Source of the DNA: a virus
Taxonomy: Duplodnaviria; Caudoviricetes
Direction: 5' to 3' (one strand)
Virus record (IMG/VR): IMGVR_UViG_3300005588_000038
Coordinates: 1 to 63,128 of that record
DNA length: 63,128 bases
The notes under the pieces are model-generated. The model was not told the origin of the DNA, did no database searches, and was given only the letters and a program-made list of their open reading frames with translations. Positions 20,904 to 54,573 of this stretch are shown here, piece by piece. How positions within the stretch are numbered: the stretch's first letter is position 1; the number at the start of each line of letters is the position of its first letter. The translations under genes and the position numbers were made by a program.

Positions 20904-22232
20904 ATGCTGGTCTTTCTGCAAGGAGGGTTGCAGCTACTTTCAGCAGCAACCAGCTCTTCTTCGAGTTCTCTGTCAAGCAGCAGCTCCGAATCATCGAGTA
21001 GTCGATCATCATCGAGTTCGATTTCGAGTAGCTCAAGTCAGTCATCGAGTAGTCAATCTTCGTCAAGCTCTGTTTCTAGTTCGTCGCAGAGTAGCTCAAG
21101 TTCTCTGTCAAGCAGCTCTGCATCGAGCAGTTCCAGCAGTTCGAGTTTATCATCGAGTAGTCAGTCGAGCAGCAGCTCGGTATCAAGTTCGTCTCAAAGT
21201 AGTTCGAGTAGTCAGTCGTCGAGCAGCCAATCAAGCAGCAGCTCAGAATCGTCGAGCAGCCAATCAAGCAGCAGCTCTTCTTCGAGTTCATCGCAAAGCA
21301 GCAGCTCTCAGTCGAGCAGTTCGAGTCAGAGCAGCTCAAGCCAATCGAGCAGCAGCTCTGAATCATCGAGCAGCCAATCTTCGTCAAGCTCATTGAGCTC
21401 AAGCAGTCAATCATCAAGCAGTAGTCAATCAGGCTCGAGCCAATCAAGCAGCAGCTCCGAATCATCGAGTAGCCGATCTTCGTCGAGTTCACTGAGTTCG
21501 AGTAGTTCGTCGTCAGTCAGCAGTTCGAGCCAATCAAGCAGCAGCTCTGAATCATCGAGTTCACTGAGCTCTTCGAGCTCTTCGAGCTCAAGCAGTCAAT
21601 CATCTAGCAGCAGTCAGTCATCATCTAGTCAAAGCAGTTCAAGTCAGTCGAGCAGCAGCTCCGAATCATCGAGCAGTCAGTCGAGCAGCAGCTCCGAATC
21701 ATCGAGCAGTCAGTCATCATCTAGTTCAAATTCTTCGAGCAGCCGGTCATCAAGCAGCAGTCAATCCGGCTCGAGCCAATCAAGTAGCAGCTCGATTTCT
21801 TCGAGCAGCCAGTCATCAAGTAGCCAATCGAGCAGCAGCTCTGAATCATCGAGCAGCCAATCTTCGTCAAGCTCATTGAGCTCGAGCAATAGCAGTCCAT
21901 CTTCAAGTTCTCATTCATCTAGCTCAATTTCAAGTAGTTCGAGTCAATCAAGTAGTTCGAGTCAATCAAGCAGTCAGTCATCATCCAGCTCTCAGTCGAG
22001 CAGCAGCAGCTCCTCTTCTAGTTATTCGAGCAGCAGCCAATCGAGCGAAAGTTCATCAAATTCATTCTCTGAATCGTCTTCATCATCAGCAAGATTGGTC
22101 CATCCAGCCGGAAAAACAATCAATGCTGTTGGGGTATCTGCATCTTCATTCACGTCAAGTGGATTCACGTCAAGTGGATTCACGTCAAGTGGATTCACGT
22201 CAAGTGGATTCACAATACCAGTAACTGAGTAA
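20904..22232 (+). CDS. Poly-serine protein (~379-aa Ser tract)
   Basis: Only long open frame; tract 20952-22088 uses mixed TCN/AGY codons with Q/E/L spacers; short non-repetitive ends. Confidence 0.9.
   Translation: MLVFLQGGLQLLSAATSSSSSSLSSSSSESSSSRSSSSSISSSSSQSSSSQSSSSSVSSSSQSSSSSLSSSSASSSSSSSSLSSSSQSSSSSVSSSSQSSSSSQSSSSQSSSSSESSSSQSSSSSSSSSSQSSSSQSSSSSQSSSSQSSSSSESSSSQSSSSSLSSSSQSSSSSQSGSSQSSSSSESSSSRSSSSSLSSSSSSSVSSSSQSSSSSESSSSLSSSSSSSSSSQSSSSSQSSSSQSSSSQSSSSSESSSSQSSSSSESSSSQSSSSSNSSSSRSSSSSQSGSSQSSSSSISSSSQSSSSQSSSSSESSSSQSSSSSLSSSNSSPSSSSHSSSSISSSSSQSSSSSQSSSQSSSSSQSSSSSSSSSYSSSSQSSESSSNSFSESSSSSARLVHPAGKTINAVGVSASSFTSSGFTSSGFTSSGFTSSGFTIPVTE
22149..22213 (+). repeat. 15-bp tandem repeat TTCACGTCAAGTGGA x4 + partial (FTSSG)
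   Basis: Exact copies at 22149, 22164, 22179, 22194. Confidence 0.95.
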
Positions 22233-22238
22233 TCCATC

Positions 22239-22595
22239 ATGTCGTTAATCCATGCGTATCAAAATCGAGGAAAAACCTGGGAATTCCAGATCAATGGATC
22301 TGACGGTTCTGCCGTTACTCCTGGTGATTCTGATAAAGTTCGGATTATCATTGGTCGAGAAGGACAGCTCGGAGTTGATTTATCGAATGCTGAATTGGTG
22401 GTCACATCTGAATCAAGCACAGATGCCGGATCGTCAATTACTACAGGTTCGACCAATACACTTCGTCTGGACGCAACTGATCTGGCATCGATTGAACCTG
22501 GGATTTACACTCTGTTCGTAGATTACTACGACAGTTCTGATGGCGATGAGTGGAAGAACGTCGACAGACAGGTGTTCAGTTTGGAGTCTACTTAA
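22239..22595 (+). CDS. Ig/BppU-like small structural protein
   Basis: Beta-sandwich-like pattern LRLDATDLASIEPGIYTLFVDY. Confidence 0.6.
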   Translation: MSLIHAYQNRGKTWEFQINGSDGSAVTPGDSDKVRIIIGREGQLGVDLSNAELVVTSESSTDAGSSITTGSTNTLRLDATDLASIEPGIYTLFVDYYDSSDGDEWKNVDRQVFSLEST

Positions 22596-23417
22596 ATGGG
22601 ATCGATTGTCGACATCAGTGAAGTTCTCCTAGAAGCAGGATTAGCCGCATCTGCGACGGAGACAGAACGTGCAATCTTCGCTCAAGTCATTTCTCGAGTC
22701 GAAGGACTGGTGATTCAGCATCTTAGGTACGATCCTGTGCAGCGTACTCGAACTGAATTCTATCCTCTCCAAGAATTAAATCTGTCTGGGTCAGATGGTG
22801 TCTGGCAGGTGAATGCGAGTGCAGCTTATTTCGAAAGAGCTAACCAAGTCGCAGGCAATGAGCTTCAAGTTCGTCATGTCCCGATTCGGCAAAGAGATTC
22901 ATCAGGAGATGGTGCAATCGATCTTCGCCTGGATTATGGGGCTCGATCAGGCACCAACGTCGGTTCGTTTTCAGAGTCCACCCAGAAGACAGAAGGTGTG
23001 GATTTCTGGCCTAATTATGATCAGCAGGATTCTTCGGGTTACGGTGTTTGCCGTGACGGAATTCTTCGGTCTCACGGAAGATGGCCTGTTGAGCCTGGTT
23101 CTGTCAAGATCACTTATCTGGCAGGGTATACTTCTGCTGAATTGCACGGGCAGGATTCAGCGGTAAACGCTCGACCCATTCTTGATGCGGTATTGACAGA
23201 ATCAATCCGCCAAGTAGGCAAGGTTTATTCGAGAATGAAGAAGGCTCGCGGCGGGTTTGGTGTCGGTCCTCTATCAGGAGAAGACCTTGGGGATTACGCC
23301 TACACGACTAACGGTGATCTGATGTCGTCCATCTTCGGGACGGGTGAGAGTCTCTTATCCGAAACTCGTCAGAGTTTGTCAGAGTTTGTCAATTATGGAT
23401 GGGCGATTGGAGGATAG
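22596..23417 (+). CDS. Head-tail connector (adaptor) protein
   Basis: RTEFY, SVKITYLAGY, EDLGDYAYT, L...Y-type C-terminus typical of gp6/gp15-like adaptors. Confidence 0.75.
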   Translation: MGSIVDISEVLLEAGLAASATETERAIFAQVISRVEGLVIQHLRYDPVQRTRTEFYPLQELNLSGSDGVWQVNASAAYFERANQVAGNELQVRHVPIRQRDSSGDGAIDLRLDYGARSGTNVGSFSESTQKTEGVDFWPNYDQQDSSGYGVCRDGILRSHGRWPVEPGSVKITYLAGYTSAELHGQDSAVNARPILDAVLTESIRQVGKVYSRMKKARGGFGVGPLSGEDLGDYAYTTNGDLMSSIFGTGESLLSETRQSLSEFVNYGWAIGG

Positions 23418-23419
23418 CT

Positions 23420-24138: not shown

Positions 24139-24152
24139 GGAGAACTTCAAAA

Positions 24153-24464: not shown

Positions 24465-24828
24465 GTTGTGGGTAGGTTGGTGTGTTGGGCGGTATTTGAA
24501 AAAACTCCACCGTAGAGCACAAAATCTTGAGAGACAGTCAAAAGAAACTGAAAACCGCGTTCAGTGGAGATTGAGTAGGCTAGAAGAATCGGCCGCCGCT
24601 TTTGAATCTCGATTGAGCAAAGCACAGCAAGAAGTAGCCCACCTCGAGGCTATCAATAAGAAATATGAAACTGAGCTGGAGATCATTCGCGATGAATTGA
24701 CGATCGCACAAGACGTCACCATACCTGGACTGATGTCCCAGTGCGACCGATTGATCCAGAAATGGAAAGCAGAATCCAGGATCGAAGTGATGCGGGCGAC
24801 GGCGGCTCAAAAACAGACTGAAGAGTGA
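24448..24828 (+). CDS. Coiled-coil protein
   Basis: Long heptad helix; overlaps portal start. Confidence 0.65.
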   Translation: MEWIRELWVGWCVGRYLKKLHRRAQNLERQSKETENRVQWRLSRLEESAAAFESRLSKAQQEVAHLEAINKKYETELEIIRDELTIAQDVTIPGLMSQCDRLIQKWKAESRIEVMRATAAQKQTEE

Positions 24829-26453
24829 GTTCGATGAGATATTCTCCAATCAAGAAATCATTGGATGCCCGAGACGTGAATGCGTCGCTGGCTCGATCGG
24901 CAGCCTTAGATAGAATTGCATCTACTGGTGCCAGTGGTCTGCTGCAATCACTTTCGCCTGGTCCAGTTTCTGGATTTCTCAGCGAGTTCAGTTCTTCGGG
25001 GCAGGATGCTGAGAGATATCGGAATTATCGGCATTGGGTCTATTCTGCTGTCAATGCACTGGCTCTTCAGGGCTCAGGGCAAGCAGCTAATGTCGTGCGT
25101 CTTCTAGGCACTGGAGACCAGAAGCAGAAACCAAAGGTAGGTGAGAAACAGTACGCGACAGCAGAGTATCGGAAAAGAATGCCTTCGCATCTACAAGCGA
25201 AGGCTTCGAATCAGCAGATCGAGGTTCTCAACAATCATCCGATTTTGACTGCACTAGAAAAACCAAATCCAGTGCAGTACCGATTCCAATTCATCTACTC
25301 GTTCATTGCCAATCTTGCCTTGACTGGATGGAGTTATCTTGTCGGCGGAGAAACCGAGGACGGCAGCCTTGAATTGTATTCAGTACCGACTACCTGGATC
25401 AAACCAGTCCACCGAAATGAACTGTTTTCTGAATTCAGATTGGTGAATCCGAATAATCCAACAGCGGAAGGAGTCTTGCTTAGCAAAGAGAACGTGGCAT
25501 TTGCTCAGCTGCCGGATCCAAGTGATTTATCAAAAGGATTGGCTCCAGCGGATGCTCAAGAAAATGCCATCTCAATCGATACCAAAATCCAAACCAGTCA
25601 AAGAAGTTTCTTTGACAACGGAATCTTCCCTTCTGTCATTGTGACAGTAGGAAGAGACCCGCATCCAGATGTTCCAGGAGGTATTCGCCCAAGACTGACA
25701 GCACCTCAAAGAAGGCAGGTTATCGGTGCGATTCGAAAGGTCGCTGGTGGGATTTCGAATTACGGTAATCCAGCGATTGTTGACGGCTTGATTGAGAAGA
25801 TCGAACGGCTATCAGCTACTCAGACAGAAATGGGCTGGGAAAAAAGTGAAGGTCATGTCCGTACCCGAATCTTGTCAGCGTATGGGGTTCATCCATTCAT
25901 CCTCGGCGAAACAATGGCCGGATCATACGCTCAAGCCTATGTGGTGAAGGATCAATTTTGCAGTAGAGTGAACACCTTTCTTGATCTGCTGGGTGTTGTG
26001 TCTACTGATTTTCTCGTTCCGATGGCTTCTCGGAATGATTCGCTTCGGATATGGTATGACCCGTGTGAGGCAAAAGATCCGGCACTTGACCAGAAGCTTT
26101 GGACAGATGCTCGAAGAAATCAAGATGTCACTCAGAACGAGTTCCGGGCTTTTATGGGCCTGCCGCCTGACGTTGATCGAAATGAATCAGTGATCAGTCA
26201 TCAAGCACTCCAAGGAGTTCTGAATATTGCCGCTCAGTCGTACCAAGGCAAAGTCAGCCCAGAACAGGCATCCGCTATTCTAGAGGCAGCAGGAATTCCA
26301 ACAGATTTAGCTGAAAGAATCAGTGGATCGGGCCTATCGGTTTCTCAAGGAATTGGAGCACTGGAAGAGGCAATGCGTGCTCTTGGTGGTATGTTGACGG
26401 ATAAATCAGTCGATGCGGCTGAGATAGCTCAGAGGGTTGCATGCCGAGTCTGA
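24825..26453 (+). CDS. Portal protein (HK97-like)
   Basis: WVYSAVNA, HPILTALEKPNP, LALTGWSY, GLAP, FFDNGIFP, ILSAYGVHP..LG, T.NEFRA.MGLPP. Confidence 0.95.
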   Translation: MSSMRYSPIKKSLDARDVNASLARSAALDRIASTGASGLLQSLSPGPVSGFLSEFSSSGQDAERYRNYRHWVYSAVNALALQGSGQAANVVRLLGTGDQKQKPKVGEKQYATAEYRKRMPSHLQAKASNQQIEVLNNHPILTALEKPNPVQYRFQFIYSFIANLALTGWSYLVGGETEDGSLELYSVPTTWIKPVHRNELFSEFRLVNPNNPTAEGVLLSKENVAFAQLPDPSDLSKGLAPADAQENAISIDTKIQTSQRSFFDNGIFPSVIVTVGRDPHPDVPGGIRPRLTAPQRRQVIGAIRKVAGGISNYGNPAIVDGLIEKIERLSATQTEMGWEKSEGHVRTRILSAYGVHPFILGETMAGSYAQAYVVKDQFCSRVNTFLDLLGVVSTDFLVPMASRNDSLRIWYDPCEAKDPALDQKLWTDARRNQDVTQNEFRAFMGLPPDVDRNESVISHQALQGVLNIAAQSYQGKVSPEQASAILEAAGIPTDLAERISGSGLSVSQGIGALEEAMRALGGMLTDKSVDAAEIAQRVACRV

Positions 26454-27526
26454 GTCACAATGACCCGAAGTTTGCGATATCAGTCGGACTGCATTTCGCA
26501 GCGTCCGAAATTGCGAAATTGGCGAACACTCTGTGGAGGAAATCTACAGCAGATTTCTATTCGAATCAACGAAATGATTCAGAGGAAGCTTTGGCTGATT
26601 CTGTGCGGAAAGTGATAGATGAGCAAATCACTTCGGCAGAAACTGCACTAAAGGCATTGGCAGCCGCCGGCAGCTCGATACCGACAGCCGAATCTATTTT
26701 CAATCCATCGGATTGGACTTCTGCTCTGATCGATGCTTCACTTCCTCCTATGCTTCTGGGCATGGTGCAATCTGCTGGGGCTGAGTACGTTCGTCTTGGT
26801 AATCGTGCTCGAGATTTTGAAAAAGCATCGACAGCAACAGAATGGCTGAATGACCAGACGGACGGTGGGTTCGAAGATCTTGAATTTTTAGTTGTCGGTC
26901 CTGATGGAACACCGTCCACAGTAACAATTCAGATCACCACAGAGTATCCGGAAGCGATTAAGCAGGAGATCGAAAATCAGCTCAAGGAAACATTCGCTCA
27001 AGATTATTGGGTGGATATCGGTAATGAGACACTGAGCGACATTCACCAGTTTCTCCAAGAAGGATTGGTGAACGGAGCTTCGATCGTACAGATGGCCGAG
27101 AGCATTCGATCAGAGTTAGGAGGAACTTCTCGTCAAGCTGATATCAGAGCAAAGCGAATTGCTCGGACGGAAATGACCAATGCTCTTAATGGGGCTCGAT
27201 CGGCAGCGATCGACGAGTTTTTTGCTGAGGTTCCTGATCTACCGATGAAGAAAGTCTGGTTGTCGATTCTTGCAGATACAACCAGACCTGAACATGCTGA
27301 CTTGGATGGGGTCCCAGCTGATGAAGAAAATTTGTGGACGCTGGCGGGGTACCGTGTTCGATGGCCTGGTGATATCATTTTGCCCGCAAAGCATCGATGC
27401 CATTGTCTGTGTACAGTTCATGTAGAATTCGGAATGACTGACGCAGAAGCTCGTCAACTTCGTACTGAGTACGATGAACGTGTTTTGGTAACTCAAAGAG
27501 AAATGGAGTCAAGGGAAGATGGCTAA
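26441..27526 (+). CDS. Minor head protein (Mu gpF / SPP1 gp7-like)
   Basis: RAKRIARTE, KKVWLS...TRPEH..LDG, C-x-C motif. Confidence 0.9.
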   Translation: MPSLSHNDPKFAISVGLHFAASEIAKLANTLWRKSTADFYSNQRNDSEEALADSVRKVIDEQITSAETALKALAAAGSSIPTAESIFNPSDWTSALIDASLPPMLLGMVQSAGAEYVRLGNRARDFEKASTATEWLNDQTDGGFEDLEFLVVGPDGTPSTVTIQITTEYPEAIKQEIENQLKETFAQDYWVDIGNETLSDIHQFLQEGLVNGASIVQMAESIRSELGGTSRQADIRAKRIARTEMTNALNGARSAAIDEFFAEVPDLPMKKVWLSILADTTRPEHADLDGVPADEENLWTLAGYRVRWPGDIILPAKHRCHCLCTVHVEFGMTDAEARQLRTEYDERVLVTQREMESREDG

Positions 27527-28352: not shown

Positions 28353-28799
28353 ATGAAGAACGTGACTTTTTATCTCGGTCCTGCTCCGTCGAATTTGAGT
28401 ACCCGGACGCTGACCATCACACGAATCCCGGATGCTGGTAATGACAGCTACTCTGCAGTTCACAACGCTGATGCCGGAGTAGTTGATAATGTCACTGTTG
28501 CTTTGGCGAGCAACATCATGTGGCAGGCAAAGCTCGTCGATGTGCTTGATTCAGGAGAAACATCGAATCCAGCAATCCTCAACTTCCACACAGGGTCACT
28601 TCAGTTCCCTGGGCCTGCGTCAGGTGATCGACTGAGTATTCTGTCGATGGAAGATCTGTCCAGCTCGAGTAGTAGTTCATCGGATTCATCATCTTCAAGT
28701 GAATCCAGTTCATCTCAGAGCAGCTCAAGTCAATCCAGTTCATCGTCTTCGAGTGAGTCGAGTTCATCGCAGAGCAGCTCATCGAGTCAATCGTCGTAA
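28353..28799 (+). CDS. Fn3/Ig-like protein with 46-aa C-terminal poly-Ser tail (possible head decoration)
   Basis: ~100-aa beta domain, then MEDL and Ser tract 28659-28796; GGAG RBS. Confidence 0.85.
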   Translation: MKNVTFYLGPAPSNLSTRTLTITRIPDAGNDSYSAVHNADAGVVDNVTVALASNIMWQAKLVDVLDSGETSNPAILNFHTGSLQFPGPASGDRLSILSMEDLSSSSSSSSDSSSSSESSSSQSSSSQSSSSSSSESSSSQSSSSSQSS

Positions 28800-31067: not shown

Positions 31068-31128
31068 TGCACGGAATCCCGGCGGTCGGGAAGAGTGTTT
31101 TGTTGACTGTGAGATGAAAGGTCATACG

Positions 31129-31129
31129 A
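31129..31129 (+). other. Likely capsid start codon (MKLTARL)
   Basis: AAAGG RBS precedes ATG 31129 rather than 31114. Confidence 0.5.
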
Positions 31130-39300: not shown

Positions 39301-39303
39301 ACG

Positions 39304-40320: not shown

Positions 40321-40321
40321 A

Positions 40322-41086: not shown

Positions 41087-41122
41087 TGCGGCGGCGTAGT
41101 GTTTGGCGGATAGATTAAGAAC

Positions 41123-43216: not shown

Positions 43217-43223
43217 TTGACTG

Positions 43224-44768: not shown

Positions 44769-45343
44769 TTATCGGTCCTGATTTTGTGATTGGCCATATC
44801 GGTAAAACTGGAGGAGATGCTGCGAAGCAGTATACAGAAGCTCTTCGACCGAAAGGAGTGCACTGGTACGCAATCACCAACCCAGACAAACACCTGCCGC
44901 CGCACCAAGTGGTAGATCTGGAGGCCCATGATCTGGTTCTCACTTTTCGTCGGCTGCCGTCAATGGTGTTATCTTGGTTTCATCATTTCGGATGGCAAAG
45001 GACTCGATTTGATTCTAAGAGTGAAATGGTTGCTGCTATGGTCGAGTTTACTCGACCAGATGAAGTATTGAAAGAATTTGTGTCTGAATCAAAGCGCATT
45101 CCCTACTTCATTCGGTGCGAAAATCTTTTTGATGATTTGATAGAATTCTATCAGGCAAAAGGCGTTCTGGTTCAAACCCTGCAGGCTGCTCGGTTGTTTG
45201 AAGGAATCGAGACAAAACCAAAGCGTCAGTATCAACATCGAATTTCAAGCTGGTTCTCGTCTGGCCAATTGAAACAACTATATCAGAATAATCCACTTTG
45301 GTCAGAGTACGAAAATCGGGTGTACGGTTATCTGGTGCGGTAG
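44765..45343 (+). CDS. Sulfotransferase-like protein
   Basis: HIGKTGG (PAPS-loop-like), R.P....SW, IRCENL.DDL, Y..D/E...GY. Confidence 0.7.
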   Translation: MIIGPDFVIGHIGKTGGDAAKQYTEALRPKGVHWYAITNPDKHLPPHQVVDLEAHDLVLTFRRLPSMVLSWFHHFGWQRTRFDSKSEMVAAMVEFTRPDEVLKEFVSESKRIPYFIRCENLFDDLIEFYQAKGVLVQTLQAARLFEGIETKPKRQYQHRISSWFSSGQLKQLYQNNPLWSEYENRVYGYLVR

Positions 45344-45363
45344 TTCTTCAGAATGGCTCGAAT

Positions 45364-45957
45364 ATGAATTCCAAACAAAAACAAAATCGAACTGAGCTGC
45401 TGCAGAATTACTGCCAAAGCCATCCAGATATCGATGAGCGGACTCGATCTTCTTTGAACTCAATGCTTCTGAGGTACACACGATATCCACAAGCAAAGAG
45501 TGCCTTTGGCAGGCTCCCTGTACACTCGATGGCTGTAATGGATTTTGGGTGCGGAGTCGGGGACTATGGGTACATCGCTCTCAAGTACGGCCACAAAGTC
45601 ACGTTCTTCGACAACAACCCAGAGATGATTCGATTTGTCCGTTGGAGGATGGAAGGTATGGGCCGGAAAGCCGAATACAGCACAACTCAACCTCATTTCA
45701 GAGAATTTGATGCAGTGGTATTCGGTGAAGTTCTTGAACATCTAGAATCGCCTTTGGCGGTGATCACTGATGCTCTTCAGCATGTGGAATTCTTAGTCAC
45801 CTCAAGCTACCCGTTGCCTCATTCAGACGAGTACTGGCAGCATCCAGGACATACAAAATCAGCCAGAAAGGAATCGTCAGAATGTCTGAAGCTGCTTCGA
45901 TCAAAGTGCTATGAAATTAAAGGGCTTCAGCAGCTTCGAGTTTGGGCTGTGAGGTGA
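45364..45957 (+). CDS. Class I SAM methyltransferase
   Basis: MDFGCGVG, FDAVVFGEVLEHL. Confidence 0.9.
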   Translation: MNSKQKQNRTELLQNYCQSHPDIDERTRSSLNSMLLRYTRYPQAKSAFGRLPVHSMAVMDFGCGVGDYGYIALKYGHKVTFFDNNPEMIRFVRWRMEGMGRKAEYSTTQPHFREFDAVVFGEVLEHLESPLAVITDALQHVEFLVTSSYPLPHSDEYWQHPGHTKSARKESSECLKLLRSKCYEIKGLQQLRVWAVR

Positions 45958-45961
45958 TTCA

Positions 45962-47335
45962 GTGTTGACTTTGATTACACCGACGGGAGATCGACCGGAA
46001 GCGTTTGCGCTTTGCGAGTATCTGATGTCTCGGCAGACCTGCAAGGAAGATCGCCAGTGGATTGTGGTGGATGATGGGAAAACCCCCACAGTACCCGTCT
46101 TAGGTCAAGATTACATTCGACGCACTCCGCATCGGAGTGATCCTTCGCACACCTTAGCCACCAATCTGGCGGTTGCTTTACCAAGAATCAAAGGAGACCG
46201 GATCGTCATTATCGAGGATGACGATTACTACTGCCGAACATACCTCGAAACTATGCTCCAGAATCTCCAGAAAGCTGATTTGTGCGGAGAACGAGGAGCC
46301 AAATACTACCACATTCAGAGCCGGAGGTGGTACTTTTGGTCGGACCACCAGCACGCCAGTCTATGTCGAACTGGATTTACCCGAAAAGCTCTCAAGGCTT
46401 TTGAAGGCACTTTGAGTAGTCTTCCTCGAGGCGACTGGAAAGTTGACATGGCTTTTTGGAAGCGATTTCGTGGAGCACGGAATCTCCGGGACTCAACTAC
46501 CAGAGGCAGAGCTTCTTGTGTAGGTGTGAAGGAACTTCCTGGTCGAGCCGGAATCACACATAAGCCGAATCGTCGTTCTCGGGATGATTCTAATCTATCA
46601 AAATTCAAAGAATGGCTCGGAGAAGATTGGTCTTTGTATCATCGGTTTGTCGATGATTCGCCTGTCAGCAACATCGTAATCTATACCTGCTCTTTTGGTG
46701 GCTATGATAAAATCAACACAGCGGTGCCAGGAGTGAGGTGCGTGGTGGTCACCGACAATCCTAATCTGAAAGTCCCTAGAGGCTGGGAACTTCGAGTAGT
46801 CCCTGTATCAGAGCAGGCGTCCACACCGAAACAAGCGAGTCGGTACTGGAAAATGATGTCCCATGAATTGTTTCCCAATCGCCCTACTCTGTACGTTGAC
46901 GGAAATGTTCGTCTGAAAAAGAATCCAGTCGATCTCCTTCGGCAGATATTGTATCAATCGCAAGGCTCACCTGAAATCATACTACTGAAGCACAATCGAA
47001 GCAGGACTGTGAGAGATGAGCTAGAAACTGTGGTTCGTATCGGTTTCGCTGATTCGTCTGTAGGAAATCTTTCAGTAGTCCAAGAGAGCTTGGACAATCC
47101 TGTTGCGTGGGGAGGATTCATTTATCGGAGACCTTCGAGTGGGACAGAGGCATTCAATCGTATCTGGTGGGATTTATTTTCGAAAGGAGTGCAGAGAGAT
47201 CAGCTAGTTCTGGTAACTGCACTTGATAGATCTGGAGTAGTCTACACAATATCAGGACAGCCAATTCCATTCTATGGAGAAACGTCGCCGTGGATGGATG
47301 TGGTTTCCCATCGGCTTCAGAGGTCAAAGGTGTAG
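45962..47335 (+). CDS. Two-domain glycosyltransferase: GT2-like + DUF616-like
   Basis: LITPTGDR..WIVVDDG..IEDDDYY; VIYTCSFGGYD..YVDGN..RDQL. Confidence 0.88.
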   Translation: MLTLITPTGDRPEAFALCEYLMSRQTCKEDRQWIVVDDGKTPTVPVLGQDYIRRTPHRSDPSHTLATNLAVALPRIKGDRIVIIEDDDYYCRTYLETMLQNLQKADLCGERGAKYYHIQSRRWYFWSDHQHASLCRTGFTRKALKAFEGTLSSLPRGDWKVDMAFWKRFRGARNLRDSTTRGRASCVGVKELPGRAGITHKPNRRSRDDSNLSKFKEWLGEDWSLYHRFVDDSPVSNIVIYTCSFGGYDKINTAVPGVRCVVVTDNPNLKVPRGWELRVVPVSEQASTPKQASRYWKMMSHELFPNRPTLYVDGNVRLKKNPVDLLRQILYQSQGSPEIILLKHNRSRTVRDELETVVRIGFADSSVGNLSVVQESLDNPVAWGGFIYRRPSSGTEAFNRIWWDLFSKGVQRDQLVLVTALDRSGVVYTISGQPIPFYGETSPWMDVVSHRLQRSKV

Positions 47336-47338
47336 ATT

Positions 47339-48235
47339 GTGTCCGAGGATCCGCTAATCATCGTAGACCGCCAGAAGAACCCGACACACGCTCTGCGTAA
47401 TCTCTTATCAGGCGGATGTGCGTTTTTGGTTTGCGGAGGCCCGTCTAGTAATCAGCTACCCCTCGAGAAGTTGAATTCTCGAGGGGTATTTTCAATGGCA
47501 GTGAACAACATGGCTGGGCATCGTTCACATCGACCATCTGCGTTTGTGTGCGCAGACCCTCCTCGCAAGTTTCATTCTGGGATTTGGCTGGATCCTGGTA
47601 TTTTGAAATTTCTTCCGATCGTGAAGATGACGAAATCTCGAGGTAGGTTGAGACAGAAAAAAGATGGATCTTTTTCTGATTTAACGGATGAAGCTGCGGC
47701 ACTCCAATTCATCACAGACATGCCTAACGTCTGGGGCTTTGAGCGTAGAAACTGGATGCGTCCAGACGACACGTTTTTTTCAGATGAAGGAGCTGCGTGG
47801 GGCAATCTTAATGCAGGCGTGATGAGAACAGGCGAACCAAAAACTGTGTGTACTATGCTCTTGGCACTTCGATTGCTCTACTATCTAGGCGCTCGGACTA
47901 TTTTCTTGATTGGTGTAGATTTCCACATGGACTCGGCTTTGCCTGAGATTGGAAACTATGCGTTTGAGGAAAAAAGAGATGCAGCAGCGATTTCATCGAA
48001 TAACTCGCAGTACCGAATTGTCAACTCTTGGTTGAGTTCCATGCAGGGCGACGGTGTGTTTTCTCGGGCCGGATTGAGAGTGTTCAATTGTTATGAATAT
48101 TCTGGATTGAGAGCCTTTCCATTTATTCCGTTTCAAGATGCCTTGACGTACGCACTCAGAATGATGCCGCCGCTGCCGTTTGATTTGACCGGGTGGTATA
48201 ATTCTACAGACAAGAAAGACTCCAGCGATGACTGA
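47339..48235 (+). CDS. Maf/DUF115-like (CMP-ulosonate-transferase fold) glycosyltransferase
   Basis: AFLVCGGPS..MAVNN..FVCAD..LALRLLYYLGARTIFLIGVDF..VFNC..S.L..F. Confidence 0.75.
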   Translation: MSEDPLIIVDRQKNPTHALRNLLSGGCAFLVCGGPSSNQLPLEKLNSRGVFSMAVNNMAGHRSHRPSAFVCADPPRKFHSGIWLDPGILKFLPIVKMTKSRGRLRQKKDGSFSDLTDEAAALQFITDMPNVWGFERRNWMRPDDTFFSDEGAAWGNLNAGVMRTGEPKTVCTMLLALRLLYYLGARTIFLIGVDFHMDSALPEIGNYAFEEKRDAAAISSNNSQYRIVNSWLSSMQGDGVFSRAGLRVFNCYEYSGLRAFPFIPFQDALTYALRMMPPLPFDLTGWYNSTDKKDSSDD

Positions 48236-48713
48236 CATTACTCGAGCCTACGACTGGGAAGAAAAAATCTGGGGAAGAACGTGCCGGCAGCCTGTTTCTG
48301 CTCTTAAGGATTCCGAAGAGAGAGCAGGAATCAAGTATTCCTTAGTCATTCAAGAAGGTGGATGTTGCTCGTTCCATTATCATGCAAACCGAAGTAATCG
48401 ATTCGAAGTCACTTCTGGTGTGCTTCGGGTTGTGTGGGCTATCGGTTGGGAATTGTTCCATCGAGACCTCCGAAAAGGCGACTCACTGCTAATTCGAGCA
48501 AACATCCCTCATCAATTTCAGTGCTTACGAGGAGAATCCTACGCAAAAGAAATCTATCTACCAGATGGAGGAGGCGTAGATGTGACTGATATTGTGAGGA
48601 TGACTACAGGCGTGAAGCTGGATTCGAAATCAGAAAGATTTCGGACTCTCGTAGAGCGGCCTTGTGTTGTTTTGGCTGATGGTTCTTTCAGGACACCAAT
48701 CAAAGATGATTGA
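48228..48713 (+). CDS. Cupin (sugar isomerase-like)
   Basis: EKIWG, CSFHYH....F.V.SG, PHQF, DIVR. Confidence 0.8.
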   Translation: MTDITRAYDWEEKIWGRTCRQPVSALKDSEERAGIKYSLVIQEGGCCSFHYHANRSNRFEVTSGVLRVVWAIGWELFHRDLRKGDSLLIRANIPHQFQCLRGESYAKEIYLPDGGGVDVTDIVRMTTGVKLDSKSERFRTLVERPCVVLADGSFRTPIKDD

Positions 48714-49500
48714 GTACACAACTGTTCTTGGTGTCGATAGAAAGCATCTATGCCAACTCAAGCTGGCTTGGCCTAATTGGTGTGAGCAAAAACCGTCGAT
48801 TTTGAAAAATCGATTGGTGATTTTCTACGACGCTGGAGAACCTGTTGATTTGGCTCTTCGTCGAGATATCCTGAAGATCGTCGAAGAACACCCTTTCTTC
48901 ACCTTGATACCGTGGGGCCATGGAACTCAGTACCAAGGGGAAGTCGGATCCCGATGGCATGATCCTCAGCGGCACAAGATGCTCGCTGGATTTGTTCATG
49001 TGCCTGCGGCTTATGTATCGACTCCATATTGGTTGAAGCTCGATCTTGATACGATTGCAGATGGGATGGATGACTGGGTTGATCCAAAATGGTTCGAGAA
49101 CAGTCCTGCGATAATCGCCCATCCATGGGGATACACAAAGCCAGCGAACCAGATGCTTCTACTTGATGAGTGGTCGGTCAGGCATCATCAAGTTCTGTCT
49201 GATGATTTTGTAGAGCCGAGACTCAACTTGGTTCCAAAATCAGAATCATCTGGAATGGTGAAGCACCGCCGTATCATTTCTTGGTGCGGCTTTTTCGATA
49301 CAAATTTCACTCGGCGTGCTGCTTCTTCGGCTGACATTACCGAAGGGTATCGTCAAATCCCAGTACCTTCTCAGGACGGATATCTGTGGTACTATGCAAC
49401 ACGATGTGGACTGCCTGTTCTTCGAGTCAATATGAAGTCTCGTGGCTGGCACCATAAGTCGAATCTGTCTGGAATGAAGCGGGCAATCGAAGAGATTTAA
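48706..49500 (+). CDS. GT-A fold glycosyltransferase-like protein
   Basis: TPYWLKLDLD (DxD), SQD; cluster context. Confidence 0.65.
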   Translation: MIEYTTVLGVDRKHLCQLKLAWPNWCEQKPSILKNRLVIFYDAGEPVDLALRRDILKIVEEHPFFTLIPWGHGTQYQGEVGSRWHDPQRHKMLAGFVHVPAAYVSTPYWLKLDLDTIADGMDDWVDPKWFENSPAIIAHPWGYTKPANQMLLLDEWSVRHHQVLSDDFVEPRLNLVPKSESSGMVKHRRIISWCGFFDTNFTRRAASSADITEGYRQIPVPSQDGYLWYYATRCGLPVLRVNMKSRGWHHKSNLSGMKRAIEEI

Positions 49501-49522
49501 GTTATTAGCAGTAGTGGACGCA

Positions 49523-50191
49523 ATGGGTAAAAATCGATCTGGAAATGCTGTTATTCAGTTCTGCGAAAAGATTGAATGGCAACCGAAAACAGTAATCATC
49601 GCAGGTGTCGGTGTCCGCGGAACAGAAGTAGAGCTGATGCGGCAGGCATGGGATGATTGTGAGATTTACGGTTTTGAGCCGAATCCTCTAACGTACCAAT
49701 CATGGGTGAGACGGGAATCAACTTTTCCTGGGATGTTGATAAACTCAGCTCTTGGAGCCTTCGAGGGTTTAGCGACTCTGCGGTTTCGGCCTCAGCACAA
49801 AGACGGTGGTAGCTTGGCTGGTCTTGCAGAAGGGCCGTCGGCTTCAGCTACAGTCGACGTAGCCACTCTGAATTCTTTCTTTCGAAGATTCGAAAAAGCA
49901 CAGGGCTTAGAAGAATGTCTTCTTTGGCTTGATTGCGAGGGGTCTGAGCATAGAATTCTACAAGGACTCATCGGGGAAGGATTTGAGAAAAAGATACCGG
50001 TTATCAATGTTGAGATGACTGGGATCCCACCAGCAGACGGCTGGGCCGAACCAGTCCAGATCCATACCTGGATGCGGGATTTTGGGTACCACAGGCGGTG
50101 GGTACACACCACCAGAATTAACCGTGCTCAATACGATGCGATCTATGTGAGGAATGATAGGAACTTCAATCCAAGGATTCGAATGTGGTGA
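49523..50191 (+). CDS. FkbM-family methyltransferase
   Basis: YGFEPNP, ALG, LLWLDCEGSEHRILQG. Confidence 0.88.
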   Translation: MGKNRSGNAVIQFCEKIEWQPKTVIIAGVGVRGTEVELMRQAWDDCEIYGFEPNPLTYQSWVRRESTFPGMLINSALGAFEGLATLRFRPQHKDGGSLAGLAEGPSASATVDVATLNSFFRRFEKAQGLEECLLWLDCEGSEHRILQGLIGEGFEKKIPVINVEMTGIPPADGWAEPVQIHTWMRDFGYHRRWVHTTRINRAQYDAIYVRNDRNFNPRIRMW

Positions 50192-51090
50192 TGGTAGAAG
50201 ACAAACCGACAGTCTCGGTCAATTATCTCATGAGCGGGCCTGCTCATCTGCCGTATTTGGTTGTGAGTTTGTTCACTCTTCGGAGATGGTGGGATGGTCC
50301 GATTCGGCTTCATGCTTGGGATGAGTCTATCGACATCGTTGATAAGATTGCCGAAGACAAACGATTGAGCATAACCAAAGTACATCGTCGAGAACCTGAG
50401 CTACGACGAAAAGATGGAATGGGCGGCAACTCGCAGTTCGCTGATAAAATCCGAATGATGCAGGGAGTTCCAGATACTGCTGCGATCTACCTTGATGCAG
50501 ACACCATGGTCACAGGTAGCTTGTCTGATTTGGTTATTCCGTTAATCGAAGATGGTATCGAAGAATTCGCAGGGACACAGTTCAACAATTGGCGCACCAA
50601 TTCAGGAGTCGTGAAAAAGCGTATCCAGAGACTTGAAGGTCGGCAATCGGTTAACCAAAAAGCAGTAGAATTGCTGCTGAATAACCCAATGCCTTCTGTC
50701 AATGGTGGTGTGTTTTCGTGTTATCCTCGGACCGAGCTTCTTGCTAAGTGGTATGAGTGGACGTGTGATTGCCGGGATCTCTTTATTGCCGACGAGACGG
50801 TACTCCACGCTGTCATGGCTGAGAGTTTCCAGACAAAATTCGGCATCGTAGCAGAAGGCACACACAACTCATCCCCGAGACACTCTCAGCTTCATCCGAA
50901 TCAAGTCCATGTCTGGCATTTCCACGGCGATTCGAATGTTCGGCCGAACAAGAGTCCAAGAGGAGTAGATCTGTGGTGGCCGGTTTATCAGCAATGCCTG
51001 AAATGGAACATCGGCTACATCAATAACTGGAAAGATTCTTGCCGAAACAAGTGGATTCCAAAATTAGAAGAGGCGATGACCAATGGGTGA
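50185..51090 (+). CDS. GT8-like glycosyltransferase
   Basis: IYLDADT, NGGVF, DE..L, WHFHG. Confidence 0.8.
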   Translation: MVMVEDKPTVSVNYLMSGPAHLPYLVVSLFTLRRWWDGPIRLHAWDESIDIVDKIAEDKRLSITKVHRREPELRRKDGMGGNSQFADKIRMMQGVPDTAAIYLDADTMVTGSLSDLVIPLIEDGIEEFAGTQFNNWRTNSGVVKKRIQRLEGRQSVNQKAVELLLNNPMPSVNGGVFSCYPRTELLAKWYEWTCDCRDLFIADETVLHAVMAESFQTKFGIVAEGTHNSSPRHSQLHPNQVHVWHFHGDSNVRPNKSPRGVDLWWPVYQQCLKWNIGYINNWKDSCRNKWIPKLEEAMTNG

Positions 51091-51787
51091 GCGTGCCACA
51101 AAGAATCCTGCATTTGATGCACTTCCGCACGAAAAGAACATTCCTGTCAATAAGACAGGTTGCAAGTTTACTCGGAGATGGTTCGAGCACCGCAACCAGA
51201 AGACTTGGTCGACTTTCTTGCTGGACAAGTTCAGCAGCAAAGAACCAGTCAACATGATTCAGATTGGGGTGTTCGAAGGCATGGATCTGCTGTGGTGTCT
51301 TCAGAATTTCTTAGGGCATGCCAGAAGTCGTGTGCTGGCTGTTGATCCGTGGGCGGCTACAAGAAAACTTGACGATGAAAAGATGGCTGCTGTCGAAGAA
51401 AGGGCTCGAGCCAATCTGGCTTCCTACGGAAAGAAAGTTGAGCTCGTTAAAGGTTACAGTGCTGAAGTTTTGAAGCAGTCTCTCGAGCAGACGGAAAGAG
51501 TCAAAGGGAAGTTGATTGAACCTGGGCAGTGGGATTTGGTTATTGTTGATGGTGATCACACAGACTTAGCTGTCTTGGCTGATGCACGACTAGCTCTACA
51601 GTTGGTGCGGTCAGGCGGTTGGATTGTCTTTGACGATGTCCGAAATGCACACCCAAAGAAAAATCACGTCTACGACGGACTTGAGATTTTCTTGTCACAA
51701 AGAGGACATGAAGTCAAAGAAGTTTGGCGGCATCGATACTGCAACTGCTACGAAAAACTTACCACCGAGGAGATCGAGTCAGAATGA
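51083..51787 (+). CDS. Methyltransferase (Methyltransf_24-like)
   Basis: QIGVFEG, VDPW, DLVIVDGDH, GGWIVFDD. Confidence 0.88.
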   Translation: MGERATKNPAFDALPHEKNIPVNKTGCKFTRRWFEHRNQKTWSTFLLDKFSSKEPVNMIQIGVFEGMDLLWCLQNFLGHARSRVLAVDPWAATRKLDDEKMAAVEERARANLASYGKKVELVKGYSAEVLKQSLEQTERVKGKLIEPGQWDLVIVDGDHTDLAVLADARLALQLVRSGGWIVFDDVRNAHPKKNHVYDGLEIFLSQRGHEVKEVWRHRYCNCYEKLTTEEIESE

Positions 51788-52338
51788 TCAATTACGAAAA
51801 ATTCCAGTTCGCATCTCCTCCTCGAACCGGAACATCTTGGTTCATCAATCTTTGTGCCCAGGCTCAGATTGGAGCCGGTAATCCCGCCAAACATCTACCT
51901 CCACCGCCGACTTGGAAGAACGGCTGGGTGCTGTCTATCGTGCGGCATCCAGTTGATTGGGCGGTATCTATGTATTTTGCACTTCGTGGGGGAATGATTG
52001 CAGTTCCGGAAGTCGATGCTGTCAGTGCTGTGGCTCGGGAGTCCAGTGACATTCAGATTTTCTTGGAGAAGCTCTCAAAATCACCAGGCATTATTGAGAC
52101 GGCTTTTGCTGCGTACCGAGCTGATTCAGTGATTCGGCTCGAAGATGTGCCTTGGGCGGCGATCGAGTTTTTGGTGTCGATGGGGTATTCAGAAAAAACC
52201 CTCAAAGCAATACCAAATCTCAATGAACCGAAAAATCGACTCAATCCAAAGGTACGTGCAGACGTACCAAAAGAACTCCGGAAGGCTGTAATTCAATCAG
52301 AATTAGCCTTTTGTGAAAGGTACGAGTATTTCTACTAG
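51784..52338 (+). CDS. Sulfotransferase-like protein
   Basis: SPPRTGTSW, IVRHPVDWAVS.Y, IRLED. Confidence 0.75.
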   Translation: MINYEKFQFASPPRTGTSWFINLCAQAQIGAGNPAKHLPPPPTWKNGWVLSIVRHPVDWAVSMYFALRGGMIAVPEVDAVSAVARESSDIQIFLEKLSKSPGIIETAFAAYRADSVIRLEDVPWAAIEFLVSMGYSEKTLKAIPNLNEPKNRLNPKVRADVPKELRKAVIQSELAFCERYEYFY

Positions 52339-52347
52339 AGGCCGAAA

Positions 52348-53085
52348 ATGCCAGCAGCCAGACGCATCTACATTCCAGCAAGGATGGACTCTAAACGATT
52401 TCCCGGTAAGCCGTTGGTCGATATTGCTGGCAAGCCTCTTCTTCGAAGGACCTACGACACGGCTCTGCTCTGTGGAGCAGACTCCATTCATGTGGTAACT
52501 CCTGATAAGGAGATCGAAGAGTACTGCCGAAGAAATGGCATACCAGTATTCTTTGATGATACTCAGCAGCACGCAAATGGCACGTCTCGAGTGATGGCAG
52601 CCGCTGCTAAGTTACATGCCGGTCCATCCGGAGTAGCTCCTGACGTTGTCATCAATTGGCAAGTCGATGAACCGTTGATCAATGCGTTTGATGTGCAAAG
52701 AATGATGGAGTCGAATTCTCATGTGATTTCGACTTTGGTGGCAGATAGACCATCTATATTCAATCCTGCATCATTGGTCACGGTTAGGGTTTCTAGAGGC
52801 TATTGCCGATGGTTTTCTAGGGTACCACCAGCTAATGATGCTCCGCAGCCTCTTGCTCACATCGGAATATATCGATTTTCTCGATGCATACCTAATCTCG
52901 GGGAAATAGACGACTGCCCTTGGGCCCAGCATGAGGACCTTGAGCAGCTTGCCTGGATTGAAAAAGGCTGGACGATTGAAGCTATTCAGTCCAAAGACGA
53001 ATTTCCACCGCCATCAGTAAACACGCCAGAAGATGCTTCTGTGGTTTCTAGAATCTACGAAGAAGAAAATGATACTTGGCGTTGA
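52348..53085 (+). CDS. kdsB: CMP-Kdo synthetase-like cytidylyltransferase
   Basis: IPARMDSKRFPGKPL, GT.R, INWQVDEP, FSR, HIGIY, E.LEQL, SVNTPED. Confidence 0.88.
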   Translation: MPAARRIYIPARMDSKRFPGKPLVDIAGKPLLRRTYDTALLCGADSIHVVTPDKEIEEYCRRNGIPVFFDDTQQHANGTSRVMAAAAKLHAGPSGVAPDVVINWQVDEPLINAFDVQRMMESNSHVISTLVADRPSIFNPASLVTVRVSRGYCRWFSRVPPANDAPQPLAHIGIYRFSRCIPNLGEIDDCPWAQHEDLEQLAWIEKGWTIEAIQSKDEFPPPSVNTPEDASVVSRIYEEENDTWR

Positions 53086-53100
53086 GTCGAAAGACCGGTA

Positions 53101-53676
53101 ATGGCTGTACCGCAGACCCTTGAAAAGTTGATTCGTAATCTGATAGGTGAACCAAGTACAGGCGCTGAGATTGGTGTCTGGAAAGGAGAGACTTCTGCCT
53201 ATCTCCTTGAATCTTTTTCTGAGCTACAGATGGCTTTGATTGATCCATGGAAGGAATGGGACGAATCGTCATCGTATGCCAAGAGGCACCAACGAACTGG
53301 TAGATTAGTGGATTCGGAGTGGTCCAGTGTATACGACGAGTGTCTAAGTAGACTTGGGACCTATCTGCCTCGTCTGCGAGTCTATCAGATGGAATCAGAA
53401 CAGGCAGCGAAGCTGCAATGGCGGCCGTTCGACTTTGTCTTCATCGATGCAAACCACACCTATGAATCTGTCAAGCAGGACATCAGTTTATGGATGCCGC
53501 TGACGACAAAATTGATCTGCGGACATGACTACGGTGGAACCTATCGTGGGGTGAAGAAGGCAGTTCTTGAGTTCTTTGATGAAAAAGACGTCATCGCCCC
53601 AGGGGATAGAATTTGGGCCGTTTTACTCCAATCTGAGCCTGGTTTGTTTCGGTCTTCTTCTGAGATTTCTGATTAG
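53101..53676 (+). CDS. Methyltransferase (Methyltransf_24-like)
   Basis: GAEIGVWKG, IDPW, FDFVFIDANHTYESV, GHDY. Confidence 0.9.
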   Translation: MAVPQTLEKLIRNLIGEPSTGAEIGVWKGETSAYLLESFSELQMALIDPWKEWDESSSYAKRHQRTGRLVDSEWSSVYDECLSRLGTYLPRLRVYQMESEQAAKLQWRPFDFVFIDANHTYESVKQDISLWMPLTTKLICGHDYGGTYRGVKKAVLEFFDEKDVIAPGDRIWAVLLQSEPGLFRSSSEISD

Positions 53677-53727
53677 CAGAATTTGTCACTCAGTAATTCT
53701 GCGTCACCACAAATCAGAAATCTAATT

Positions 53728-53772
53728 AGATGGCAGTGTGCTGTCCTGCGGTACTCTGCCATCTTTTTCTTT
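53728..53772 (+). terminator. Intrinsic terminator preceded by a second long hairpin
   Basis: agatggcag/ctgccatct + ttttcttt; upstream agatttctgatt/aatcagaaatct (53663-53723). Confidence 0.7.
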
Positions 53773-53802
53773 GGTGTACACAGCAACGGAGGAGCAGTTT
53801 AG

Positions 53803-54573
53803 ATGAGTACCTATCGACCTTCTTTGGAGATCGTTACACACTGCTGGAGCGGAGAAGAGGTTTCCGTCTATCATAATCTACTCGCCATGCAACTGACTAG
53901 TCTGTATCTTGAAGCCGACACATCCAAGATACAAGCGTCGATCACCGTGTGTGCGTCGTCTGCAGACCACCGCACTATCGAGGTCATTGAGTTCTTTTCT
54001 GATTTGTTTTATCTAGGGAAGCCTGATTTCGAAGTCCGTTTGTGCGCACTCCTTCCAGAAAAGTTGTTCCGGAGGGCTATCGGCAGAAATCAAATCACAA
54101 AAACCACCGCAGCTGATGTTGTTTGGTTTACCGACTGTGACTATCTATTCTACGGTGACAGTTTGCGGCGTGCGGTGGTTGCGTGCATGAATGCAGCAGT
54201 GCCTATGGTGTACCCGCAGCAGGTGCGCACGCACCGGACACATGCCTTAGGCGACCAATCGATCGAAGAGGCATCTAAGACAAGACTCTACCTTCCTCGG
54301 CAAGAAGATTTCTATCTACGAAAAATGAGTCGACCGATTGGAGGTATTCAGATTGTAAAAGGTTCGTGGTGTCGGGAGAAAGGGTATCTCGATAGTTCTG
54401 GATGGACTGAACCAGTGCAGTCAGATCATTTTCTGCAGTGTCGGTGTGATGTTGCTTTTCGTCGGCAAGCAGGAATGGACTCGGCTTCCAGAGATATTCC
54501 TGATGTGTATCGAGTGCGGCATTCTCGATGCGGCAGGGACTGCGGAAAAATCAATCATGGAGATAAAGAATGA
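53803..54573 (+). CDS. GT2/GT7-like glycosyltransferase
   Basis: RAIGRN...ADVVWFTDCD, IGGIQ, H near C-terminus; GGAGG RBS. Confidence 0.75.
   Translation: MSTYRPSLEIVTHCWSGEEVSVYHNLLAMQLTSLYLEADTSKIQASITVCASSADHRTIEVIEFFSDLFYLGKPDFEVRLCALLPEKLFRRAIGRNQITKTTAADVVWFTDCDYLFYGDSLRRAVVACMNAAVPMVYPQQVRTHRTHALGDQSIEEASKTRLYLPRQEDFYLRKMSRPIGGIQIVKGSWCREKGYLDSSGWTEPVQSDHFLQCRCDVAFRRQAGMDSASRDIPDVYRVRHSRCGRDCGKINHGDKE

Follow-up and report, generated by a model that had tools for sequence, protein, structure and literature searches.

The DNA considered here is an entire IMG/VR virus record (IMGVR_UViG_3300005588_000038; 63,128 b, classed as linear, CheckV completeness 68%), hereafter called the window, that derives from an uncultured phage of the Caudoviricetes with a genome of about 90 kb. 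Two features of the window are at the centre of this analysis. The first is a set of long serine (Ser) tracts carried by three open reading frames (ORFs) at 20904-22232, 28353-28799 and 34502-35176, and the second is a cluster of 12 ORFs at 45298-54573 whose predicted products are glycan-making and glycan-modifying enzymes. Read together, these genes suggest that the phage probably sugar-coats its own particle.

All three Ser-rich ORFs are located on the + strand. The ORF at 20904-22232 encodes a 442-aa poly-Ser protein in which codons 17-408 specify 310 Ser out of 392 residues. Protein A (148 aa, 28353-28799) is encoded in the head module and its final 46 codons (28659-28796) comprise 39 Ser, and protein B (224 aa, 34502-35176), whose gene separates the connector genes from that of the putative tail tube, has 33 Ser in its final 37 codons (35063-35173). 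The background level of Ser in the other window genes is 7.2% (1273/17581 codons). All six Ser codons are present and intermixed in the three tracts, and Tandem Repeats Finder detected only imperfect, long-period repeats in them, which argues that the tracts did not arise by trinucleotide slippage. When a poly-Ser ORF was defined as one with at least 15 Ser within 20 residues, a single such ORF was found in 80 random viral loci totalling 1.07 Mb. Ser content is ordinary in the capsid protein (9%) and in the putative tube protein (8%), and neither has a tail.

The folded parts of A and B were modelled with AlphaFold2 using family alignments. The ~102-aa folded part of A is predicted to be an FN3/Ig-like sandwich (predicted local distance difference test, pLDDT, 89.4), and Foldseek superposed it on FN3 domains with a TM of 0.6-0.7 and a root-mean-square deviation of ~2 Å over ~80 residues, at E only ~1e-2. 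The ~187-aa folded part of B is predicted to be a jelly-roll (pLDDT 91.9) that matches generic jelly-rolls only (Foldseek E at best 1.2e-3; VIA Z <=7.7, a range that the tool calls common), with plant-virus coat proteins, Ena appendage subunits, a phage cement protein and a haloviral turret protein among the structure matches. A tail tube identity was considered for B and rejected, the confident model being a jelly-roll with generic matches only. From fold type and gene position, A and B are read as putative accessory or decoration proteins.

The Ser endings of both proteins are conserved. A set of 23 IMG/VR loci with a related major capsid protein (MCP; 46-67% identity) was collected, two of which cover neither A nor B and three of which have B cut off at the contig end. 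A Ser ending was observed in 16/16 of the loci that cover the C-terminus of A and, in the same way, in 16/16 of those that cover the C-terminus of B. The most divergent locus, L023, has tails of only 10-12 aa; a minus-strand 'poly-Ser' ORF in this locus was rejected, since the + strand there encodes an acidic tail and the ORF is an artefact of it. A family search of a 5.8-billion-protein collection gave a similar picture, with a Ser run past the MED junction in 38/38 clusters of the A family and a tail in 38/41 clusters of the B family, where two of the remaining clusters are cut short ahead of the junction and one (P0037) stops at it, tail-less. The junction sequences are kept (MEDLSSS in A, GRHDDDESSS in B) and the tail length varies between ~10 and ~490 aa. 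The upper extreme among B tails is a ~490-aa Ser tract in an 889-aa B orthologue (2897-5563 in L069 and L070). Moreover, L003 carries two B paralogues that are both tailed, and a Ser-tract ORF was found immediately upstream of the core enzyme gene of the cluster (X1, see below), at the position of a distal tail gene, in ten loci (L051, L054, L057, L060, L062, L065, L067, L068, L071 and L072). Sequence comparison supports the view that selection acts on the Ser tails as protein features, and that Ser tags are portable, being placed on different particle-module proteins in different relatives.

The 20904-22232 ORF looks unlike the two tails. Its product is composed of a near-pure Ser run, a short non-Ser peptide and four FTSSG repeats, and these C-terminal repeats are encoded by a perfect 15-bp repeat (4.4 copies, 22148-22213). 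ORFs resembling it stand in the relatives G002 and G005, and a C-terminal peptide that follows the Ser run, G-[IL]-[VIL]-x-x-P-x-x-K-[ST]-[VI], is common to the window ORF, G002 and G005. The G002 counterparts (locus L036) are of 864 aa (67018-69612) and 722 aa (70078-72246), and consist of an N-terminal domain, 350-670 aa of Ser and the short peptide. In the long proteins of these relatives the Ser run is, by its placement, a predicted spacer between the N-terminal domain and the conserved C-terminal peptide. The pure Ser ORF sits in the -1 frame after a gene ending in GRITEL[TS], both in the window (20865-20904) and in G005 (10801-11562 and 9341-10801). The frames of the window gene at 19801-20883 and of the poly-Ser ORF share 18 nt; a split gene or a fusion by programmed frameshift is possible, and no slippery site was seen.

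The cluster is composed of five glycosyltransferase (GT)-like proteins, four methyltransferases, a cupin, a KdsB-like cytidylyltransferase and one sulfotransferase-like protein, all encoded on the + strand. From 43224 to 53676, neighbouring genes overlap or are 3-15 nt apart. The ten genes from 47339 to 54573 are syntenic in G001-G004, that is in 4/4 of the relatives reaching this region, where they come directly after the distal tail genes. The preceding stretch (41123-47335) is variable and has no orthologue in the relatives. It includes the first two cluster genes, namely a class I S-adenosylmethionine (SAM) methyltransferase (45298-45957; Pfam Methyltransf_12/23/25/11; no orthologue in G001-G005) and a two-domain GT-like protein (45962-47335; GT2 plus TOD1/MUCI70; PF00535 7.4e-5, PF04765 3.2e-6; no match in five relatives).

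The conserved part begins with X1 (47339-48235), a divergent Maf/GT42-like candidate CMP-sugar transferase (CMP, cytidine monophosphate) identified by a sub-threshold PF01973 match and by a CstII profile match. It is followed by a cupin (48228-48713; PF00190, PF07883; orthologues in G001, G003 and G004) and by a lead for a GT-A-fold GT-like protein (48664-49500), which has a conserved D-x-D and, in an ESM Atlas structure search, reached a TM of 0.64-0.67 to GT8 and GT15 clusters; no Pfam match and no PDB sequence match was found for it. Next come an FkbM-family methyltransferase (49514-50191; PF05050 1.8e-12, TIGR01444) and a weakly supported GT8-like protein (50185-51090), for which PF01501 was matched by 2/4 orthologues (1.3e-3, 8e-3) and the top PDB profile match was 5gvv, 'Glycosyl transferase family 8', at E 0.55. 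The ORF at 51083-51787 encodes a Methyltransf_24/O-methyltransferase-like protein (PF13578 3.8e-18, PF01596 1.2e-4). The sulfotransferase-like protein (51724-52338) is a lead from Atlas matches only: it has a feature score of 0.95 to a cluster with PF03567 in 75% of its members and a TM of 0.77 to sulfotransferase clusters that are themselves under the naming bar, together with a Pfam match at only E 0.14 and no match by sequence against PDB. Its true start is probably residue 21.

The KdsB-like CMP-sugar synthetase (52348-53085; PF02348 7.9e-27, 94.9 bits) is by sequence a member of the PF02348 family closest to KdsB, and would activate a sugar of the ulosonic acid type. Its best NCBIfam model, NF003952, scored 148 bits against a cut-off of 193, the nearest models are all of Kdo (3-deoxy-D-manno-oct-2-ulosonic acid) cytidylyltransferase, and the PseF model gave only 28 bits. 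A KdsB homologue is present in G001, G002 and G004. The cluster is completed by a second Methyltransf_24 protein (53101-53676; PF13578 8.9e-14) and by a GT2-like GT-A protein (53803-54573), which has PDB profile matches to 5tze ('Glycosyl transferase') and 6h1j (probable beta-1,3-N-acetylglucosaminyltransferase) at E ~2e-3 and whose orthologues match PF00535 in 3/5 cases (3e-4 to 0.19). No membrane segment was found in any cluster protein; the sole Kyte-Doolittle peak among them (1.64) is in X1, at an invariant 'KTVCTMLLALRLLYYLGA' stretch just ahead of its GVDF motif. In addition, Pfam and NCBIfam searches detected no flippase, polymerase or lipid-carrier transferase family in the cluster. 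The clusters of the relatives add a Sulfotransfer_2 gene (G001), a Mannosyl_trans3 gene (1e-32; G003) and a DNA methylase (G002). Radical SAM genes are located within the glycan clusters of G001, G003 and G004 (L029:18923-19759, L038:6397-7119 and L041:6392-7114), and none is present in the window.

A first-pass annotation of this DNA had described three genes with long Ser tracts and, after the tail genes, four methyltransferases, a cupin and a KdsB-like enzyme, all of which were recovered here. It had also counted about six GT-like genes and two sulfotransferase-like genes; the former number comes down to five (45962, 47339, 48664, 50185 and 53803) and, of the latter, the 51724 gene is kept as a lead and no second one was found. 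An NDP-sugar (nucleoside diphosphate sugar) epimerase that it had named outside the cluster is confirmed at 11536-12504 on the + strand, as an epimerase/dehydratase of the short-chain dehydrogenase/reductase (SDR) type (PF01370 2.2e-47); it scores under all NCBIfam equivalog cut-offs, and G002 also encodes one.

X1 is the best-conserved gene of the cluster, with identities of 51-56%. The same match to PF01973 (Maf/MptE-like, DUF115) was obtained in all five sequences, X1 and four orthologues, at E ~0.05 and profile positions 146-168. A profile search of 1.84 billion representatives with X1 retrieved 1478 proteins at E <= 1e-3. When X1 and 68 of 150 listed representatives, the longer ones being chosen, were scanned with Pfam (n=69), PF01973 was found in 36/69 at E <= 0.01 (best 6e-7) and CST-I in two. 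The same 69 proteins include fusions to methyltransferases (9), sulfotransferases (3), a cytidylyltransferase (1), GT25, GT2, GT8 and pyruvyl transferase domains. In parallel, a 110-row X1 profile matched seven Campylobacter CstII sequences (including 1ro7 and 2drj) at E 1.1e-3 to 1.6e-3, with two colinear motifs in the alignment, GGPSL and LG..YL.G.DF...YAF. The GT42 motifs G-x-G-P-S (the N-terminal nucleotide motif) and L-G-x-x-x-I-Y-L-x-G-x-D-F are colinear in the X1 profile, and GGPS and GVDF are invariant across five X1 orthologues. The HMMER alignment of X1 with CstII stops at chain residue 185, ahead of the catalytic histidine of CstII, His188. The Maf structure 5mu5 was not among the PDB profile matches of X1; the catalytic acidic residues of the Magnetospirillum magneticum Maf are given as E324 and D415 in a preprint (bioRxiv 10.1101/2020.06.03.131540). 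Judged from its motifs and profile matches, X1 probably has a divergent form of the Maf/GT42 CMP-sugar transferase fold.

A cut-off of E <= 1e-5 gave at least 320 X1 clusters, many of them on 85-100 kb contigs. X1 also appears as entry P0234 of the protein collection, where it is called shorter (246 aa) and comes from 9 contigs of up to 92,396 b; the size of these contigs indicates that there is probably a more complete copy of the genome of this phage. Conservation among the orthologues favours the longer start used here over the 246-aa call.

The Ser tails and the cluster were found together in the window and in G001-G004, and X1 together with a tailed B in G006-G008. Among close X1 loci, 31/45 have a poly-Ser ORF within the locus DNA; three of the other 14 were checked and in 3/3 a tailed B is encoded at another place on the contig. 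Beyond the clade, distant X1 homologues (29-40% identity) have a poly-Ser ORF within 10 kb in 10/43 loci, compared with 1/80 random loci, a ~20-fold enrichment with a Fisher p of ~1e-4 that ignores relatedness and is therefore rough. Without two loci having B homologues the count is 8/41 (p ~7e-4, rough for the same reason). The positives represent about six lineages (L103, L111, L112, L113, L131 and the L118/L120/L129 group, the X1 of which are 78-81% alike), and in several of them large Ser-tract proteins directly adjoin X1. A KdsB homologue accompanies X1 in four of the distant loci, three of which are poly-Ser positive. On the other side, 33/43 distant loci are without a poly-Ser ORF within this distance, which indicates that the enzyme family extends beyond the tag. 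Finally, an MCP relative (L081, 33% identity) has no Ser tail within 10 kb of its capsid gene, and the whole metagenome-assembled genome (MAG) is without X1.

The first-pass annotation had suggested a test of whether poly-Ser structural proteins and GT clusters co-occur across related phages. Such co-occurrence holds within the clade, where no member with one feature and without the other was found among the relatives examined, and it extends beyond the clade through the enrichment near distant X1 homologues. Its further proposal that the Ser tracts are dedicated tags is supported in part by the tails of A and B, which are conserved, portable and always accompanied by the cluster; the 20904 ORF looks different, such runs being spacer-like in relatives. 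Its view that the cluster is suited to Ser O-glycosylation gains support from a core enzyme of probable Maf/GT42 type. The anionic, sulfated glycan that it had proposed has a single sulfotransferase-like lead, and the suggested roles in shielding, host-surface mimicry or biofilm diffusion are hypothetical.

The remaining gene content is that of a tailed phage, with nearly all genes downstream of ~5.7 kb on the + strand. The portal (24825-26453), MuF (26441-27526), scaffold/protease-like (29550-31067) and tape measure (36874-39300) genes were assigned by Pfam/PHROGs. The HK97-type MCP (31114-32802; PF05065 5.8e-9, phrog_10) is long (562 aa), with its HK97 domain confined to residues 293-548 and a ~270-aa N-terminal part outside it. 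The putative major tail (tube) protein (35221-35697) was named from weak matches: the top PDB profile match is 8gtb_B, 'Major tail protein', at E only 0.47, and phrog_1407 (major tail protein) was matched by 1/5 orthologues (3.8e-4). A replication module starts at 54921 (sigma-like factor, SNF2 helicase, primase, DnaB-like helicase). The sigma-70 region 2 protein (54921-55484) is located directly 3' of the glycan cluster and is kept in G002. Upstream of the head module, at 14232-19807, are genes for M12-like metallopeptidase (15034), thioredoxin-like (16092), PAS-like (17403) and LamG-domain (18992) proteins, a set that is odd for a phage late region. Tandem repeats are present at both record ends (12-14 bp at 1-45; 15 bp in 6.7 perfect copies at 63029-63128), and these ends are probably contig breaks within repeats. 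No tRNA was found in the window. From 36000 to 55600, 17 promoter-like sites were counted against a shuffle mean of 20.8 (standard deviation 5.0) and 26 terminator-like sites against 16.5 (standard deviation 3.6); no inference was drawn from either count.

Near-complete relatives reach 92-93 kb (G001, 97% complete; G002, 98%). G002 encodes PolA, a RecA-like protein, a clamp loader and a holin, and no integrase family was detected in it at E <= 1e-4. No cultured relative was found, as neither the MCP nor X1 gave a tblastn match among 50,697 phage records. MCP relatives were observed on three MAG contigs, attributed to Georgfuchsia (1.7 kb), Pirellulaceae (8.4 kb) and Porticoccaceae (100 kb, 33% identity). 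The Pirellulaceae contig carries a tailed A and a tailed B; binning of short contigs being unreliable, no host was assigned.

The explanation that we favour, with a confidence that leans only slightly to its side, is a phage-encoded cytoplasmic protein O-glycosylation system in which poly-Ser tails serve as acceptor tags. The conserved tails, the soluble cluster that always accompanies them and its Maf/GT42-type core make glycosylation of the tails the best reading. A and B each consist of a folded anchor domain, FN3-like in A and a jelly-roll in B, and a disordered Ser tail, and according to this model they would be made late in infection from the same strand as the run of soluble enzymes. 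The KdsB-like enzyme would make a CMP-activated ulosonic acid more abundant, with Kdo from the host pathway as the most likely sugar, and X1 would place it either on the Ser hydroxyls or on a first sugar. The GT-A-type transferases (GT2-, GT8- and GT15-like) would start or extend the glycan, and the four methyltransferases, the cupin and the sulfotransferase-like protein would tailor it. Docking of the tagged proteins on the particle would then create a glycan brush.

Several observations weigh against this explanation. Both the glycosylation of the tails and the place of A and B on the particle are predictions, from gene content in the first case and from fold and gene position in the second; the capsid and putative tube proteins are untagged. 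The PF01973 score of X1 (~13.5 bits) is far under the Pfam cut-off of 34.6, and its match to CstII has an E of 1e-3 and spans two short motifs. With 298 aa, X1 hardly exceeds a transferase core, and since GT42 enzymes act on glycans, it need not touch protein at all. No KdsB homologue was found in G003, and neither KdsA, KdsD nor NeuB was found in G002. A spacer function could be the sole role of the Ser run in the long proteins. Both features being universal within the clade, their joint presence there is one evolutionary event and offers no correlation. The poly-Ser-negative majority of distant X1 loci counts on the same side, and it includes G009 and G010, in which no B homologue was found on contigs that are 26% and 55% complete.

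These points leave room for other explanations. It is rather unlikely, in our estimation, that the Ser tails stay unmodified and act as hydrophilic flexible bristles or spacers, with the cluster acting on, for example, host envelope sugars or nucleotide-sugar pools. Such a role would fit the long Ser runs of G002 and G005, which bridge an N-terminal domain and a short conserved C-terminal peptide, the 33/43 distant X1 loci without a nearby poly-Ser ORF, and the poly-Ser linkers that are reported for secreted enzymes of marine bacteria (PMC2386152, PMC2699552). On the contrary, the tails of A and B end free and join nothing, which speaks against spacers. A host-envelope role is weakened by a cluster devoid of membrane, flippase and lipid-carrier components, and a cluster unrelated to the tails would be expected neither in the string of late structural genes nor in the neighbourhood, ~20-fold enriched in poly-Ser ORFs, of distant X1 homologues.

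It is less probable still that the cluster modifies particle proteins in another manner, the tails bearing sugar-phosphate, phosphate, sulfate or methyl groups, or the sugars being attached to other sites. The four methyltransferases and the sulfotransferase-like gene would be compatible with this, as would the radical SAM enzymes added in relatives, and a Dictyostelium serine-rich domain bearing N-acetylglucosamine-1-phosphate (GlcNAc-1-P) is named in the title of a reference. However, the conserved core has GT-like genes, in a cluster with five in total, and a CMP-sugar synthetase. FkbM and Methyltransf_24 enzymes, moreover, usually tailor sugars. Both the unmodified tails and the other modifications remain live alternatives. 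Hypermodification of the phage DNA by the cluster is, in turn, very improbable. The PHROGs name of the Methyltransf_24 genes is 'DNA methyltransferase' (phrog_2675), a true DNA methylase is found inside the G002 cluster and the replication genes come directly after the cluster, but no hydroxymethylase or thymidylate-synthase family was found in the near-complete G002, which makes this explanation unlikely, and CMP-ulosonate chemistry is not known to have a DNA target.

The favoured glycosylation of the tails can be extended to a general proposal, which is tentative and which we would not at present expect to hold as a whole. A portable phage poly-Ser glyco-tag would turn any Ser-tailed particle protein into a mucin-like bottle-brush in the cytoplasm, with a minimal Maf-type start that uses a Kdo-like sugar, followed by extension, methylation and sulfation. 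Tail length would set the thickness of the coat, and the same logic might be served by other enzymes in unrelated lineages. If tail glycosylation is true, it would be a second and mechanistically different case of phage self-glycosylation, occurring in a widespread uncultured clade, as the number of X1 clusters indicates. A minimal Ser-directed transferase with a simple, genetically encoded acceptor tag would be useful for glyco-engineering. In addition, some environmental phages would have thick glycan coats, with effects on adsorption, aggregation, grazing and particle counting.

Among known systems, Maf flagellin O-glycosyltransferases are alike in that they are soluble, cytoplasmic, use CMP-sugars and have a PF01973/GT42-like fold, features that are predicted here from sequence; a cytidylyltransferase adjoins the transferase in both cases. 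Maf enzymes act in the cytoplasm as O-glycosyltransferases of flagellin Ser/Thr, and for two of them the product formed from CMP-Kdo is Ser/Thr-O-Kdo (bioRxiv 10.1101/2020.06.03.131540); CbMaf requires its cognate flagellin context (PMC11339370). In contrast, X1 consists of the ~300-aa transferase core only, falls under the Pfam cut-off and is without the extra flagellin-context domain, and it would act on a disordered homopolymer carried by phage proteins rather than on surface loops of a folded flagellin.

Serine-rich repeat adhesins of Gram-positive cocci provide another parallel, their Ser-rich tracts being O-glycosylated in the cytoplasm by the co-located GtfA/GtfB and by GT8 enzymes. Ser-rich tracts with co-located enzymes are shared with the phage, in which 50185-51090 has its weak GT8 match. 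On the contrary, the phage tracts are near-homopolymers where the adhesins have SxSx dipeptide repeats, an accessory Sec export is missing, and no GT4/GtfA-type family was detected in the cluster (Pfam E <= 0.01; E <= 1 for unassigned genes). Giant viruses also encode the synthesis of their own particle glycans, including methylated sugars, on the chlorovirus capsid and on mimivirus fibrils. The virus-encoded particle glycan is alike; the eukaryotic hosts, the other enzymes and the lack of any known poly-Ser tags are not.

A functional precedent comes from mycobacteriophages, in which phage GTs and an O-methyltransferase modify particle proteins (Freeman et al. 2023, as summarized in PMC11600133). 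Phage-encoded GTs and methyltransferases are common to both, being known here from their genes. According to that summary, the capsid and tail tube subunits are modified in mycobacteriophages, whereas here both are untagged and accessory proteins carry the Ser tails; a Maf-like transferase, a KdsB-like synthetase and ten conserved genes in a 12-gene cluster further set the present system apart. A full-text literature search found no description of poly-Ser tags or tails on phage proteins, or of a phage system combining poly-Ser with a glycosyltransferase. Phage virion glycosylation as such is known from mycobacteriophages, and it is the arrangement of poly-Ser tags for which this search gave no precedent.

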